From the sequence record MK903281.1: 39,263 nt of DNA. One strand, 5' to 3'. Made by a program: the position numbers and the translations under genes. The notes below the pieces were generated by a model. It was given only the letters and a program-made list of their open reading frames with translations. It was not told where the DNA came from and did no database searches. Shown here one piece after another: positions 552 through 7,412 of the stretch. Position 1 is the first letter of the stretch; each line of letters starts with the position of its first letter. The DNA is from Escherichia phage Penshu1.

Positions 552-581
552 TTGACAAGCAGTACCAATAAGATGTAAGAT
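552..581 (+). promoter_or_regulatory. Host sigma70 early promoter (T7 A2-like)
   Basis: TTGACA at 552-557, 18-bp spacer, TAAGAT at 576-581; the upstream flank (CCGGTTAAGTAGACAGCCTGATAAGTCG) is near-identical to the flank of T7 promoter A2. Confidence 0.6.
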
Positions 582-699
582 GCACCACATCGAAACGACG
601 GTGAAGCCTACCACTGAAACAGGCTAGCATGGCGACGACAGCCAATGCGAATGCTCTTTAACAATCTGGATAACTCTTAATGTGCGCCGATAGCGACTA

Positions 700-735
700 A
701 CTACAGGGTCTTTGAAAGCTGAAGGCCCTGACTGA
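700..735 (+). promoter_or_regulatory. RNase III-like processing hairpin, family 1
   Basis: CAGGGTCTT (704-712) pairs with AAGGCCCTG (722-730) as a 9-bp stem with one G-U pair and a 9-nt loop, directly upstream of the first early gene; position matches T7 R0.3. Confidence 0.5.
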
Positions 736-760
736 TAGTCACTAACTAAAGGATAGACAA

Positions 761-949
761 ATGGCATACCGTAAGATGACCAAAGCAGAAGTGATAGCTG
801 AATGTCGTGAGACTTTCCGCGAGTTCCCTGAGATTTTCAGAGGTGACGACATAGCGAAACAGCAGCACTGGAATGACTACACCGATAGTCTATGCAAGGA
901 TGGCATTATTTCTAACCACCAGTACAACACTTGGTCTAACCCATTTTAA
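761..949 (+). CDS. Hypothetical early protein, 62 aa
   Basis: First ORF after the early promoter and hairpin; weak SD (AAAGGA). No resemblance to T7 Ocr (gp0.3) that I can recognise. Confidence 0.5.
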   Translation: MAYRKMTKAEVIAECRETFREFPEIFRGDDIAKQQHWNDYTDSLCKDGIISNHQYNTWSNPF

Positions 950-961
950 GGAACTACAACC

Positions 962-1486
962 ATGAAACTGATAGGCAAAGGCGCGTTCACTAAGTGCTAC
1001 CTGAAGGACTGCGGGAAGCGTGTACTTCTGGTCTCTTCAGACCCAATCAAGGAGTGTATGGCGTGGGGATGGTTCCCTGAGTCTTCACTGTTCCCTGAAG
1101 TCAAGATGATTGAGGTAGGCACGTATGAGATGGACTACATGCCGCCAACACGAGGTCTCAAGGCGCATTTAGAACATGACCAGTGGCAACTCTATCAGGT
1201 GCTGCGCGACTGCTTCTCACGGTCTCCGGTATACTCTCGACCTGACGAACTGTATCACAAGTGGTACGAGATATTCCAAGATGCACACGACAGGTCTGAG
1301 TCTGAGACTGTGCGTGAGGGCCTGATGGATGTTCTGATGGCGCTGGACGCTTGCGCTAACTTCGGGTCAGACATTCAGTTTGAGATAAGCCTACGCAATG
1401 TACGGGCTGTGGCTGGCAAGTTGATACTGGTCGATTGTTTCTTCCTTGTGTCCAAGCTGCGAGAGGTGAGGTCATCAAGATGGTAA
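962..1486 (+). CDS. Protein kinase-like early protein (gp0.7 kinase-domain-like, C-terminal shut-off domain absent)
   Basis: Gly-rich loop LIGKGAFTKCY near the N-terminus resembles MLGNGHFSAAY of T7 gp0.7; 174 aa versus 359 aa in T7; position matches gene 0.7. Confidence 0.5.
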   Translation: MKLIGKGAFTKCYLKDCGKRVLLVSSDPIKECMAWGWFPESSLFPEVKMIEVGTYEMDYMPPTRGLKAHLEHDQWQLYQVLRDCFSRSPVYSRPDELYHKWYEIFQDAHDRSESETVREGLMDVLMALDACANFGSDIQFEISLRNVRAVAGKLILVDCFFLVSKLREVRSSRW

Positions 1487-1629
1487 CTTATGGTCTCTGC
1501 CAGAAACACGTCACTAGCGCCCGGCTTATGGTTCATACCGGGCAGTTAAACCACGATGCGGCTATGCGTCTCTTGAAAGTGGTCTACAAGCGCCGCAAGC
1601 GAATGCACGACAGTTTGCACGCTGAGTGA
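1480..1629 (+). CDS. Small basic protein, 49 aa, translationally coupled to the kinase-like gene
   Basis: ATG at 1480 overlaps the upstream stop (ATGGTAA); GAGGTGAGG lies about 10 nt upstream; C-terminal KRRKR basic patch. Confidence 0.4.
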   Translation: MVTYGLCQKHVTSARLMVHTGQLNHDAAMRLLKVVYKRRKRMHDSLHAE

Positions 1630-1632
1630 TAG

Positions 1633-1665
1633 ACTACAGGTCCTTTGACTGAAGGGCCTGACTGA
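1633..1665 (+). promoter_or_regulatory. RNase III-like processing hairpin, family 1 (second copy)
   Basis: CAGGTCCTT (1637-1645) pairs with AAGGGCCTG (1652-1660); shares the extended motif CCTGACTGAT(A/T)GTCACT with the hairpin at 700-735. Confidence 0.5.
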
Positions 1666-1697
1666 TTGTCACTTTATAACTACAGAAGGAACGAATA

Positions 1698-2045
1698 ATG
1701 ACTGCTAAAACTCGCAATGTATTCTCGGTAGCATTTAAACTTAAAGTTGTTAACTACTACACCTCCCTGCCTGAGGGAGCTATGGATAGGGTGACGGAAA
1801 CCGCCCAAAAGTTCGGGGTGGGGACGAGTTCGGTGAAGCGCTGGTTTACTCAGTTTAGCCGTGGTGAGCTTACCATGGAAAACGCTATTGCGGTAAGTCG
1901 CAGGCCCTCTAAGGTAATAACAGGGGACACATACCACCTTGCAGGAAAGGACTTCAAGTCCAAAGACGAGGCGATACGCTATGCAGTCGAGCTGGCTGGT
2001 GGGCTTACTGTAACCAAAATGACAACCATCGCGGTGGAAGTGTAG
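1698..2045 (+). CDS. Transposase-type helix-turn-helix DNA-binding protein (IS3 OrfA / HTH_Tnp_1-like), 115 aa
   Basis: FSVAFKLKVVNYY...ETAQKFGVGTSSVKRWFTQF matches the IS3-family OrfA HTH pattern (FxxEFKxxxV...xxAxxxGVxxStlxRWxxQ); RBS GAAGGA upstream; no DDE transposase partner nearby. Confidence 0.6.
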   Translation: MTAKTRNVFSVAFKLKVVNYYTSLPEGAMDRVTETAQKFGVGTSSVKRWFTQFSRGELTMENAIAVSRRPSKVITGDTYHLAGKDFKSKDEAIRYAVELAGGLTVTKMTTIAVEV

Positions 2046-2119
2046 GAGAGTGGTAGACGAGAGGTCATCGACTGATAGGTGGCCTCAAAGATTACCACTT
2101 ACATTGATAGGAGTTAACT

Positions 2120-2209
2120 ATGAACATCGGCTACTGGGTATGCTTATCTCCGGTAATCTTTCTGATAGCTTGGGGGCTTCTGGACGCAATCAAGCGAGGG
2201 TCATTCTAA
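2120..2209 (+). CDS. Small hydrophobic peptide, 29 aa (MNIGYWVCLSPVIFLIAWGLLDAIKRGSF)
   Basis: ATG at 2120 preceded by TAGGAG with 6-nt spacing; single predicted TM helix; stop overlaps the next start (TAATG). Confidence 0.35.
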   Translation: MNIGYWVCLSPVIFLIAWGLLDAIKRGSF

Positions 2210-2406
2210 TGAGCTGGATACTTCCGGTTATCTTCGGTTACGGACTTATCGCCTACGTGATGGGGAGAGACATCAACAAGGCGCGTAAAGTCTACAAATT
2301 AAACTATGTACGTCTAGGTCGCTGGACTGTACGCCAACCTAACGGTCGATTCATGCGTAACTTAGCGAACGTCTGGGATATAGCAACTCTTGGGAGCAAA
2401 CTATAA
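2209..2406 (+). CDS. Small membrane protein, 65 aa
   Basis: Internal ATG of track ORF 2050..2406 preceded by GAGGG; hydrophobic stretch ILPVIFGYGLIAYVMG; the N-terminal extension from 2050 has no RBS. Confidence 0.45.
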   Translation: MSWILPVIFGYGLIAYVMGRDINKARKVYKLNYVRLGRWTVRQPNGRFMRNLANVWDIATLGSKL

Positions 2407-2666
2407 TGAAAACCGCATACACTCACCGCCACTCTTCACACACCGCACTTCAACAGCAGGAGCGTGACCGGGTACTGCAAGCAAGACTCCGGGCTGAGGG
2501 CCATAAGTCCGAGCTGATGGGTCTGATATATGGTGGAAAACCAATCACTGACGACGGCAAACTTCTGGTCTCAGGCTGGAAGGCAATAGACCAACGGTCA
2601 ACCATCAAGCACACGACCCATGGTGACTTCAGTCATCTTCACGCTAACCCACTGATATGCAAGTGA
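2406..2666 (+). CDS. Hypothetical early protein, 86 aa
   Basis: ORF with coupled start (TAATGA overlap) and GGGAG upstream; no recognisable motif. Confidence 0.5.
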   Translation: MKTAYTHRHSSHTALQQQERDRVLQARLRAEGHKSELMGLIYGGKPITDDGKLLVSGWKAIDQRSTIKHTTHGDFSHLHANPLICK

Positions 2667-2672
2667 TTCTGA

Positions 2673-2693
2673 CTTAACTATCACTATAGGACT
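2673..2693 (+). promoter_or_regulatory. Phage RNAP promoter upstream of the RNAP gene (variant CTTAACTATCACTATAGGACT)
   Basis: Matches the 10-copy phage promoter family; +1 G at 2689; lies 71 nt upstream of the RNAP start codon. Confidence 0.6.
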
Positions 2694-2763
2694 CAAGGTC
2701 TAAGACTCCAAGTGAAAGACCAAAGAGACTTTAAGTGAAAGACTAATAACAAGGACTTTAAGT

Positions 2764-5445
2764 ATGAGCGTCATCTCTATTGACAAACACGACTTCTCTG
2801 ATGTGTCTAACGCCATTGAGCCGTTTAACCTGCTGGCTGACCACTATGGGCAAGACCTTGCAGTCAAACAGCTTCAGCTTGAGCATGAGGCATACACTGA
2901 AGGCGAGCGACGTTTCATCAAGAACCTTGAGCGACAGACTGAGCGTGGGGAACTGGCAGACAATCAGGTCGCCAAGCCTCTTATGCAGACTCTGGTCCCT
3001 AAGATTGCGCAAGCCGTTAAGGAGTGGCATGAAGGTCAAGACGGGAAGCTGTCAACCTCTCGTCCTAGCGTAGCTTTCACCATGTTGAGCACCGAAGAGA
3101 AGGTTGTTAAAGACCGCTCCCTACGCATCTCCTGCGAGTCTGCTGCGGTTATCATACTGAAGGTCATACTCTCCAAGCTGGTCAAGCCTGAAGGGATACC
3201 GATTACACCGATGGCCTCCGCGATAGGTCGCACACTTGAGGACGAAATCCGCTTCGGGCGCATCCGTGACAAGGAGCAGGAACACTTCAAGAAGGCGATA
3301 GCTGAGAACCTGAACAAGCGAGCCGGGGCATCCTACAAGAAGGCCTACATGCAAGCGGTTGAGACATCCATGCTGGAGCAGGGTCAACTGGAAGATGCGT
3401 GGGGGACTTGGAGTCCGACCGAGGCGGTACACGTTGGAATCAAGACGCTTGAGATTGTCATCCAGTCAACACAACTGGTCGAGCTTAAGCGCTACGGTGC
3501 TGGCAATGCAGCGGCTGACGTAGAGATGGTCCACCTGTCAGACTTTTGGGTAAAGAAGATGGCACAACGAGGATTTAGCCTTGCGGGCATCTCTCCAGTC
3601 TACCAGCCTTGCGTCGTTCCACCTAAGCCGTGGACCGGTGTCGTAGGCGGTGGGTACTGGGCCAAAGGTCGCAGACCACTACCACTGATTCGCTTAGGGT
3701 CTAAGTCTGCGGTGGCACGTTATGAAGACGTGTACATGCCTGAAGTCTATGACGCTGTGAATATCGTCCAGAATACGCCTTGGAAAGTGAACAAGAAGGT
3801 TCTGGACGTGGTGAACATGGTAGAGAAGCTGAACAACACGCCTATTGATGACATTCCTCAGATGGAGCCGCTGAAGCCTGAAGACTATGCGGGTGAGACT
3901 GAAGAGGAACTCAAGGCATGGAAGAAAGCTGCTGCTGGTATCTATCGCCGCGAGAAGGCCCGACAGTCACGCAGATTGTCACTTAGCTTTATCGTTAACC
4001 AAGCGAACAAGTTCTCTCAGTTCAAGGCCATCTGGTTCCCGTACAACATGGACTGGCGCGGTCGCGTCTACGCTGTGCCGATGTTCAACCCTCAGGGTAA
4101 CGACATGCAGAAGGGTCTCCTAACTCTGGCAGTCGGTAAGCCTATTGGTGCCAATGGTTTCAAATGGCTGAAGGTCCACGGTGCAAACTGTGCGGGTATT
4201 GATAAAGTAACCTTCGAGGAGCGCATCAAGTGGGTGGAAGACAACCACGACAACATAATGGCCACTGCTAAGGCACCGATGGACAGCATTGAGTGGTGGG
4301 GTAAGTTAGACTCTCCGTTCTGCTTCCTAGCGTTCTGCTTCGAGTATGCTGGCGTAATGCATCACGGATTGTCTTACTCCTGCTCGCTGCCGATAGCGTT
4401 CGATGGGTCCTGCTCTGGGATTCAGCACTTCAGCGCGATGCTTCGCGACCACATCGGTGGACATGCGGTAAACCTGACGCCTTCCGGTAAGGTCCAAGAC
4501 ATCTACCGCATCGTGTCTGACCGCATTGAGGAAGAGCTTAAAGTCCTGCTGGTTAACGGCACGGACAACGAGATGGTAACTCACGAGGACAAGAAAACTG
4601 GTGAGATTACCGAACGTCTCAAGCTGGGGACACGAGAGCTGGCCCGGCAGTGGCTGACTTACGGTATGTCACGCAAGGTGACTAAGCGTTCGGTCATGAC
4701 TCTGGCCTACGGGTCGAAAGAGTACGGCTTTGCAGACCAAGTGTACGAGGACATCGTGATGTCAGCGATTGACTCAGGGTCTGGCGCTATGTTCACTGAG
4801 CCAAGACAAGCGTCTCGCTTCATGGCTAAGATGATTTGGGAAGCTGTGAGTGTGACTGTAGTTGCTGCGGTTGACGCAATGAAGTGGCTTCAAGGTGCTG
4901 CCAAGCTGCTGGCGGCTGAAGTGAAGGACAAGAAGACTGGAGAAATCCTGAAGCCTTGCCTTCCGGTACACTGGGTCACACCTGACGGTTTCCCGGTCTG
5001 GCAGGAATACCGCAAGAAGGATACCACTCGTCTGAACCTGATGTTCTTAGGGTCCTTCAACCTTCAACCTACGGTCAACAAGGGCACGAAGAAGGAGCTT
5101 GACAAGCACAAGCAGGAGTCAGGCATTAGCCCGAACTTCGTCCACTCACAGGATGGAAGCCACCTACGCAAGACCGTAGTTCACACGCACCGCAAGTATG
5201 GCGTGATGTCATTCGCAGTGATTCACGATAGCTTCGGGACTATCCCGGCTGACGCTGAGTATCTGTTCCGTGGTGTCCGTGAAACGATGGTCGAGACCTA
5301 CCGCGACAACGATGTGCTGCTTGACTTCTATGAGCAGTTTGAATACCAGCTTCATGAGAGCCAGCGCGACAAGTTGCCTGAGCTTCCGAAGAAAGGTAAA
5401 CTGAATATCGAAGACATTCTGTCTTCAGACTTTGCATTCGCTTAA
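2764..5445 (+). CDS. Single-subunit DNA-directed RNA polymerase (T7 gene 1 homologue), 893 aa
   Basis: DGSCSGIQHFSAMLRD, IHDSFGTIPADA and C-terminal ...DFAFA match T7 RNAP signature segments; size matches the 883-aa T7 enzyme. Confidence 0.97.
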   Translation: MSVISIDKHDFSDVSNAIEPFNLLADHYGQDLAVKQLQLEHEAYTEGERRFIKNLERQTERGELADNQVAKPLMQTLVPKIAQAVKEWHEGQDGKLSTSRPSVAFTMLSTEEKVVKDRSLRISCESAAVIILKVILSKLVKPEGIPITPMASAIGRTLEDEIRFGRIRDKEQEHFKKAIAENLNKRAGASYKKAYMQAVETSMLEQGQLEDAWGTWSPTEAVHVGIKTLEIVIQSTQLVELKRYGAGNAAADVEMVHLSDFWVKKMAQRGFSLAGISPVYQPCVVPPKPWTGVVGGGYWAKGRRPLPLIRLGSKSAVARYEDVYMPEVYDAVNIVQNTPWKVNKKVLDVVNMVEKLNNTPIDDIPQMEPLKPEDYAGETEEELKAWKKAAAGIYRREKARQSRRLSLSFIVNQANKFSQFKAIWFPYNMDWRGRVYAVPMFNPQGNDMQKGLLTLAVGKPIGANGFKWLKVHGANCAGIDKVTFEERIKWVEDNHDNIMATAKAPMDSIEWWGKLDSPFCFLAFCFEYAGVMHHGLSYSCSLPIAFDGSCSGIQHFSAMLRDHIGGHAVNLTPSGKVQDIYRIVSDRIEEELKVLLVNGTDNEMVTHEDKKTGEITERLKLGTRELARQWLTYGMSRKVTKRSVMTLAYGSKEYGFADQVYEDIVMSAIDSGSGAMFTEPRQASRFMAKMIWEAVSVTVVAAVDAMKWLQGAAKLLAAEVKDKKTGEILKPCLPVHWVTPDGFPVWQEYRKKDTTRLNLMFLGSFNLQPTVNKGTKKELDKHKQESGISPNFVHSQDGSHLRKTVVHTHRKYGVMSFAVIHDSFGTIPADAEYLFRGVRETMVETYRDNDVLLDFYEQFEYQLHESQRDKLPELPKKGKLNIEDILSSDFAFA

Positions 5446-5673: not shown

Positions 5674-5749
5674 CAGACCTACAGTTACTGGCCTTGTGGC
5701 TGGGAGCACTAGCAGTATTCACTTTAATCCATCGCAGAAGAGGTTAACC

Positions 5750-5770
5750 CTAAACTATCACTATAGGATT
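5750..5770 (+). promoter_or_regulatory. Phage RNAP promoter (phi1.1-like)
   Basis: CTAAACTATCACTATAGGATT, +1 G at 5766. Confidence 0.75.
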
Positions 5771-5812
5771 AGACTCAAGGTCATGACTCAAAGTCGTGGC
5801 CTTCATGATTAA
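5770..5812 (+). promoter_or_regulatory. RNase III-like processing hairpin, family 2 (R1.1-like)
   Basis: AAGGTCAT (5777-5784) pairs with GTGGCCTT (5796-5803) using G-U wobbles; the conserved TAGACTCAAGGTCAT...GTGGCCTT(T/C)ATG motif recurs at 12520 and 36233. Confidence 0.55.
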
Positions 5813-7368: not shown

Positions 7369-7390
7369 CGTCTAGGCCACCAGCTAGACC

Positions 7391-7412
7391 CTAAGCTATC
7401 ACTATAGGACAA
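7391..7412 (+). promoter_or_regulatory. Phage RNAP promoter (variant CTAAGCTATCACTATAGGAC)
   Basis: One mismatch to the family consensus upstream of the core; +1 G at 7407. Confidence 0.65.

Follow-up and report, generated by a model that had tools for sequence, protein, structure and literature searches.

Exchangeable early-gene cassettes and a predicted minimal kinase-like protein in the Ocr position of Escherichia phage Penshu1

Escherichia phage Penshu1 (sequence record MK903281.1; the window is the whole stretch of DNA that was analysed, 39,263 nucleotides (nt) long) carries seven open reading frames (ORFs), here called A to G, all on the + strand within positions 761-2666. Comparison with sister phages indicates that the first two, A and B, form a cassette that is a precise replacement of the gene for Ocr. 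The structural model of B is that of a minimal kinase-like core, and the ORF that follows it, C, is by profile alignment a remote homologue of T7 gp0.4. On balance, and with moderate confidence, we read the block as an early operon of exchangeable cassettes in which the kinase-like B and the gp0.4-type C make up a takeover module that replaces Ocr.

By nucleotide comparison, the window belongs to the genus Kayfunavirus, the K1F-like relatives of T7 (Studiervirinae), and the block is the left-end early region. The first 6 kb are ~91-93% identical (megablast) to Escherichia, Citrobacter and Salmonella phages of that genus.

A cassette in the position of Ocr

The features of the first slot are as follows (lengths in amino acids, aa; dN/dS, ratio of nonsynonymous to synonymous substitution rates).

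691..744, + strand: RNase III-type hairpin, R0.3-like, two-stemmed with an internal loop (-22.2 kcal/mol, z -4.5); left boundary of the A+B cassette
761..949, + strand: ORF A, 62 aa, phrog_336 (E value 1e-19), optional partner of B; dN/dS 0.10
962..1486, + strand: ORF B, 174 aa, predicted minimal protein-kinase-like protein of the phrog_11084 family, in the Ocr slot (model pLDDT 94.6)
1480..1629, + strand: ORF C, 49 aa, basic, putative remote homologue of T7 gp0.4 (hhalign probability 91%)

Nucleotide homology to SH3, an Ocr-type sister phage, ends at 746, which is the end of the first hairpin, and restarts at 1479, the start of C. Because homology breaks at these two points, the A+B cassette reads as an exact swap for the Ocr gene; SH3, K1F and other relatives have an Ocr-like gene exactly in the position of A+B. 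An earlier account of this DNA (the preliminary description) had stated that the early region lacks an Ocr-like gene, and this is borne out. T7 gp0.3 and SH3 gp2 both match the Ocr family phrog_2568; the seven ORFs do not, and none of them has pairwise similarity to Ocr. The strongly acidic, DNA-mimic character that the same account proposed looking for was found in none of them either, with isoelectric points (pI) of 5.5-11.0 compared with 4.05 for both T7 Ocr and SH3 gp2.

Ocr and A+B thus share a slot, as the first gene after the R0.3-type hairpin and directly before the gp0.4-like gene, but they have no homology. A is only slightly acidic (pI 5.5) and B close to neutral (pI 6.1), and whereas Ocr is a DNA mimic, the model of B has an enzyme-like fold instead.

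We surveyed the first slot in 26 Kayfunavirus early regions (24 early regions together with K1F and GenBank JSS1), whose genomes are related to one another, so that the counts describe a pattern and are not a statistical test. Three modules were found. Ocr together with C is present in 12 of the 26 genomes; B together with C, with or without A, is present in eight (the Penshu1 type, in which A accompanies B in three of the eight loci); and six have a 244-aa T7-kinase-like gene that lacks the shutoff domain and occurs without C. No genome among the 26 has two of these modules. The family of A, phrog_336, is found in 275 phage records, most of them cyanomyoviruses.

Within one genus, the B family occupies the Ocr slot and was never seen together with Ocr, which makes it an obvious candidate for an enzyme of counter-defence or takeover that parallels the T7 kinase. 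The three-way polymorphism of the cassette also predicts that near-identical therapeutic Kayfunavirus phages will differ in their sensitivity to defence systems.

The early-gene set of Penshu1, which the preliminary description had taken to be distinct, is by sequence the standard and already sequenced Kayfunavirus repertoire rather than something peculiar to this phage. Dozens to hundreds of Kayfunavirus genomes on deposit carry these ORFs, annotated as hypothetical.

Two records in the survey deserve comment. Phage ZG49 has a partial tandem duplication at 1310-2359, consisting of a full B, a truncated C, a 3' part of B and a full C. KX689784, deposited as 'Escherichia phage JSS1', is an Ocr-type Kayfunavirus without a kinase. 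It was set aside as unrelated to the work on the JSS1_004 kinase; judged by gene content it seems not to be Salmonella phage JSS1, and the shared name could be misleading.

Ocr absence, site avoidance and ordinary host takeover

The absence of Ocr could have a simpler meaning. The block may be an ordinary host-takeover region whose products act in division arrest, at the membrane and in regulation, with Ocr lacking as the hosts rarely restrict or as the restriction sites are avoided. Many Autographiviridae are without Ocr (PMC13423816), in keeping with such a scenario, and so are the homologies of C to gp0.4, a division inhibitor, and of E to T3 gp0.6, which is non-essential. The site counts also bear on it. 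The window has no EcoKI site (AACN6GTGC) where ~5 are expected, and avoidance of GATC (3 sites compared with ~153 expected) and CCWGG (5 compared with ~80) is extreme. Avoidance of GATC and CCWGG is known for T7-group phages, and it is common to K1F, SH3, KM02, YZ1 and SH4.

However, EcoBI, EcoAI and EcoR124I sites occur in the window at expected levels (10, 7 and 13, respectively), and EcoKI counts do not track the presence of Ocr in these five relatives (3 in K1F and 2 in SH3, which carry Ocr; 2 in KM02, 0 in YZ1 and 5 in SH4, which carry B). SH3 and SH4 are sister phages from a single isolation host. Avoidance is therefore no obvious general replacement for Ocr, and we rejected Type I site avoidance as its substitute. 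It also speaks against an ordinary takeover block that A+B swaps with Ocr at the same junctions and never accompanies it, and that the B family is scattered over unrelated phages in the manner of a mobile accessory gene. Overall, we consider this alternative somewhat unlikely.

A minimal kinase-like family

In the PHROGs scan, the sole family match of B was phrog_11084, the function of which is unannotated. A profile of the B family searched against 1.84 billion representatives recovered 760 clusters at an E value of <=1e-3 and 189 at <=1e-30. Nearly all of the 150 listed matches are stand-alone proteins of 155-210 aa, and the median length is 174 aa over 139 diverse members. B ends 16 residues past D158 and has no C-terminal basic shutoff or DNA-binding domain. 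The preliminary description had recognized B as a shortened kinase-like ORF. The kinase likeness stands, by fold and by motifs, but the shortening does not; judged by its family, B is a full-length member of a family of its own of ~170 aa and not a truncated gp0.7.

B-family genes occur in 81 deposited phage records of unrelated types, including Kayfunavirus, Klebsiella and Dickeya podoviruses, the siphovirus Seurat, Ralstonia, Aeromonas and Cellulophaga phages, and 98-kb Pseudomonas myoviruses. The contexts that we inspected are early regions of unrelated phages, where the neighbours are small genes mostly annotated as hypothetical. This would be a second and much smaller kinase-like family that has gone unnoticed so far; it spans at least 760 clusters from unrelated phages, is missing from Pfam and is annotated as 'hypothetical'.

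The AlphaFold2 model of B is confident (pLDDT, the per-residue confidence, 94.6; pTM, the predicted template-modelling score, 0.88). It would represent a kinase core stripped down to a glycine loop, an N-lobe, a helical insert, the catalytic loop and a metal-binding Asp. In a Foldseek search of BFVD with this model, a member of the B family came first, followed by entries of the T7 kinase (T7K, gp0.7) family or named phage 'protein kinase' (E values 1e-5 to 3e-4, probability 1.00). Among the matches are A0A7L7SMK1 (E value 1.2e-5), which has been named as a T7K homologue (PMC13645617), and the kinases of NahiliMali, RSB1 and IME278.

Within the family, G7, E141 and D158 are invariant in all 139 members, and N146 (138 of 139), K30 (136) and R145 (133) nearly so. 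The glycine-rich loop GxGxxG/F is present, with G5 and F9 each kept in 134 of 139 members around the invariant G7, and N146 and D158 lie at the canonical spacing in the catalytic loop. The residue after D158 is C in 98 members, V in 33 and I or L in 8, followed by F; it is never Pro, so the family has no DPV motif. From the model and these motifs, B is a predicted minimal kinase-like core in which the metal and nucleotide site is preserved, Glu stands for the catalytic Asp and the canonical Lys is missing.

T7K is a proven protein kinase without an activation loop or C-lobe (PMC13645617). Both proteins are encoded by early genes of T7-like phages, and in both the kinase-like fold is trimmed to the catalytic core, with almost nothing past the Asp equivalent to that of DFG, no activation segment and no substrate-binding C-lobe. 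The motifs of B are collinear with those of T7K and JSS1_004 (glycine loop, F-[DE]-x4-N catalytic loop, NG turn and metal-binding Asp). The two also differ. B falls in phrog_11084 whereas the T7K families are phrog 2828, 15752 and 18305, with no significant sequence match between them; B, at ~174 aa, lacks both the ~65-aa N-terminal extension and the C-terminal shutoff and DNA-binding domain of T7K; and it occupies the slot of gene 0.3 rather than that of 0.7. B also has Glu for the catalytic Asp, no beta3 Lys and DCF in place of DPV, the form of the DFG motif that is conserved in the T7K family (PMC13645617).

Several observations weigh against B as an active kinase that acts in the manner of T7K. 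Pfam and NCBIfam have no match for B, none of the 139 diverse family members matches any Pfam model, including the protein-kinase hidden Markov models (HMMs), and sequence and profile searches of the PDB with B and with alignments returned nothing significant. Profile alignment of B with the gp0.7 kinase by hhalign is collinear (Gly loop with Gly loop, FEISPRN with FDxHxxN, NG turn with NG turn, and LLDCF with ITDPV) but not significant (E values 0.0015-0.028, probability <=17%), and the kinase call for B therefore rests on structure and motifs. The beta3 Lys (of VAIK) is absent: position 23 of B, the counterpart of K93 in T7K, holds only L, I or V, and the nearest conserved Lys, K30, lies in the following helix. 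The position of the catalytic base is taken by a Glu, E141, instead of Asp. Given these two substitutions, phosphotransfer by B is not assured. Codon 144 of Penshu1 B (1391-1393) specifies Leu (FEISLRN), where all seven close relatives and 130 of 139 family members have Pro, and this Leu in the catalytic loop may alter the activity of the Penshu1 protein. In Dickeya phage Luksen a B-family gene (1102-1635) in the first slot coexists with a full-length T7K (2194-3252) before gene 1, so the two are not redundant and B is no simple substitute for T7K. Depletion of S, T and Y in early proteins, which has been reported for phages with T7K, did not differ between the three slot types.

These observations raise the possibility that B resembles kinases in fold only and is a small-molecule kinase in the style of choline or aminoglycoside kinases, another nucleotide-dependent transferase, or a nucleotide-binding pseudokinase that inhibits by binding. 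The missing beta3 Lys, the Glu base and the lack of any protein-kinase HMM match in the 139 members are all in its favour, and the Foldseek matches do include choline/ethanolamine kinases and one aminoglycoside phosphotransferase. On the other hand, outside the B family it is T7K-group protein kinases of phages that are closest in structure, and the architecture of B, without activation loop or C-lobe, matches that of T7K (PMC13645617). The invariance or near-invariance of E141, N146 and D158 favours catalysis over a dead pseudokinase. We judge a likeness in fold only to be unlikely.

In the preferred reading, B would be produced in the opening minutes of infection as an active Mg-ATP phosphotransferase, constitutively open, that modifies host proteins and possibly defence proteins. 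Together with the gp0.4-type C, which would inhibit FtsZ, it could form a takeover module in place of Ocr. The case for catalytic phosphotransfer by B is evenly balanced. An anti-defence role of the kinase-like gene is plausible from its position only. The T7 kinase is a broad anti-defence factor (PMC13645617; PMC12345140), recently shown to disarm numerous bacterial defences through mass phosphorylation, and we suggest a counter-defence contribution of B because of this analogy and because B occupies the slot of Ocr; a true anti-defence role nevertheless seems rather improbable.

A bolder version of the preferred reading is that the B family represents a new class of counter-defence enzymes of phages, minimal kinases with a Glu base and no lysine that take over the function of Ocr. 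Early in infection, within the first minutes, its members might covalently inactivate Type I restriction-modification, BREX or other DNA-sensing defence proteins; they would differ from T7K and could work beside it. We think this distinctly unlikely. The unusual active site of B, with a Glu base and no beta3 Lys, would in any event be of interest to kinase enzymologists.

A gp0.4-like protein and the FtsZ block of K1F

T7 gp0.4 is an inhibitor of FtsZ and a host-takeover protein. C matches phrog_5058 and, more weakly, phrog_7202 and phrog_25044; T7 gp0.4 also matches these three, with the ranking reversed. When 18 aligned C sequences were compared with T7 gp0.4 by hhalign, the probability was 91.1% and the E value 1.1e-6, at 37% identity across 41 columns. 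The relationship escapes BLAST. The two proteins are alike in length (49 aa for C and 51 for gp0.4) and in that the start of each gene overlaps the end of the first early gene. We conclude that C is, on profile evidence, a remote homologue of T7 gp0.4.

The homologues differ in several respects. C is basic (pI 10.3), whereas the pI of T7 gp0.4 is 4.75. W28 and L35 of gp0.4 are needed for FtsZ binding (PMC13423816); L35 aligns with the invariant L32 of C, and W28 with the invariant H25. The five gp0.4 positions that contact CapRelEbc are all different in C.

K1F has been reported to lack gene 0.4, yet it causes FtsZ mislocalisation and filamentation via 'an unknown K1F phage protein' (PMC9372555). 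An ORF at 1623-1772 of K1F is 84% identical to C, and this similarity makes it the obvious candidate for the K1F protein that acts on FtsZ. The remote homology of C to gp0.4 thus offers an answer to the FtsZ block of K1F despite the reported absence of 0.4.

Organisation of the early operon

The rest of the early region is laid out as follows (HTH, helix-turn-helix; RNAP, RNA polymerase).

552..581, + strand: sigma-70 early promoter TTGACA-18-TAAGAT (10 of 12 consensus positions; no other strong match on the + strand ahead of the ORFs)
1624..1674, + strand: RNase III-type hairpin, left junction of the D cassette (-23.2 kcal/mol, z -4.0)
1698..2045, + strand: ORF D, 115 aa, transposase/Brinker-type HTH and a C-terminal domain (residues 56-115); sporadic in the genus
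2040..2104, + strand: RNase III-type hairpin, R0.5-like, right junction of the D cassette (-26 kcal/mol, z -3.9)
2120..2209, + strand: ORF F, hydrophobic peptide of 29 aa with a good ribosome-binding site (AGGAG, 7 nt before the ATG)
2209..2406, + strand: ORF E, 65 aa, putative homologue of the T3 gene 0.6 protein (phrog_2385; BLASTP to T3 gp0.6)
2406..2666, + strand: ORF G, 86 aa, basic, His-rich (phrog_7066), directly upstream of gene 1
2670..2691, + strand: first phage-RNAP promoter, core AACTATCACTATAGGA (repeat family D1; copies at 5747-5768 and 7388-7409)
2764..5445, + strand: gene 1, T7-type single-subunit RNAP, 893 aa

The first phage promoter lies only at 2670-2691, and 761-2666 is therefore transcribable by host RNAP alone; the block is a class I (early) operon served by one host promoter. 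Three gene pairs have overlapping stop and start codons, namely B/C (ATGGTAA), F/E (TAATG) and E/G (TAATG). The three hairpins, stable two-stem structures with an internal loop that lie between early genes (z -3.9 to -4.5), resemble the annotated T3 RNase III sites R0.3 and R0.5 in sequence, and the one at 1624-1674 holds a 92% repeat of 719-743. From this resemblance, they would be expected to split the early RNA into segments containing A-B-C, D and F-E-G.

The hairpins may have a second use. The D cassette (1675-2047), which is flanked by the second and third hairpins, is absent from K1F and KM02, with homology stopping at 1674 and restarting at 2048. Since the breakpoints of the cassettes coincide with RNase III-type hairpins, these structures would double as module junctions, and the comparison suggests that early-gene modules recombine at the hairpins of 691-746, 1624-1674 and 2040-2104. 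All surveyed relatives have E and G and nearly all have F, whereas D turns up sporadically in each of the three slot types.

The preliminary description regarded this slot as the classic site of anti-restriction and host-takeover functions, and its ORFs as new candidates for them without recognizable T7 counterparts. The class I nature of the block, the presence of A+B in the slot of Ocr, the T7-kinase-like fold predicted for B and the homology of C to gp0.4 agree with the first part. The second needs correction, because two of the supposedly new ORFs are homologues of known proteins, C of T7 gp0.4 and E of T3 gp0.6.

The genes from D to G

The three N-terminal helices of D (residues 11-54) are modelled confidently, and the protein may be a DNA-binding accessory factor. 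Scores against Pfam BrkDBD and HTH_Tnp_1 were below the gathering threshold; apart from these, scans of all the ORFs against Pfam, NCBIfam and PHROGs yielded only PHROGs without an assigned function. D differs from the HTH proteins of the Brinker, CENP-B and IS3-OrfA type in that it lacks a transposase catalytic domain and has a C-terminal domain of its own. This 60-aa domain (residues 56-115) is almost invariant in the family, is poorly modelled and has no family match. Homologues of D are confined to early regions of Autographiviridae. A metagenomic protein of 86 aa, P0194, has the N-terminal 40 residues of a C-like protein fused to the invariant C-terminal domain of D.

E is, from BLASTP (E value 1.8e-7, 42% identity over 55 aa), a homologue of T3 gp0.6. 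Both proteins are 65 aa long with a hydrophobic N-terminus and a basic tail carrying an NGRF motif, both genes are placed after an R0.5-type hairpin, and the K1F record names its copy of E gene 0.6. We know of no function for T3 gp0.6. T7 gp0.6, an inhibitor of MreB, is unrelated to E, with no cross-match in PHROGs. F is hydrophobic (grand average of hydropathy, GRAVY, 1.11) and has no family match in Pfam, NCBIfam or PHROGs. We suspect that E and F are small inner-membrane proteins.

For G, 139 homologues were recovered, the 120 listed ones all being >=72% identical, and it occurs in 212 phage records. It is found only in Kayfunavirus-like phages, always directly before gene 1, and may be an early protein specific to the genus. 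Its C-terminal half is the conserved part. We considered whether G could be a detached shutoff domain of gp0.7 and rejected the idea, as the similarity is insignificant. K1F (NC_007456) has a 74% identical homologue of G at 2208-2465 that is missing from the RefSeq annotation.

Coding status of the small ORFs

The preliminary description had placed its ORFs between a host-type early promoter and the RNAP gene, and there are seven there. Given their size, F, A and the 49-aa C could in part be chance ORFs or annotation artefacts: the ORFs are very short, F is without a family match, and a neighbouring ORF at 336-551 that is annotated in relatives has no codon-position bias. However, substitutions are biased to the third codon position in all seven (dN/dS 0.10-0.36, from 3-20 distinct homologous copies in related loci; 0.33 for F, over 17 distinct copies). 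Shine-Dalgarno sequences and coupled stop/start overlaps are present, and the order of the ORFs is kept in relatives. We consider chance ORFs very improbable and, because of the substitution pattern, conclude from sequence comparison that A to G are genes.

Two further ORFs were rejected. The ORF at 336-551 (71 aa), a coding sequence in the annotation of relatives (YZ1 gp01 and partly SH3 gp1), lies upstream of the early promoter, and its differences are spread over the codon positions as 22/27/27, without bias; it is probably non-coding. A GTG-started ORF of 118 aa (2050-2406) was rejected in favour of F and E, given where the Shine-Dalgarno sequences lie, the RNase III-type hairpin that spans its 5' part, and the codon bias shown by F.

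Downstream of gene 1, the phage promoter copy at 5747-5768 is followed directly by a hairpin at 5777-5803, with a 12-bp stem and 68% similarity to the early hairpin repeat, which looks like an R1.1-type processing site.

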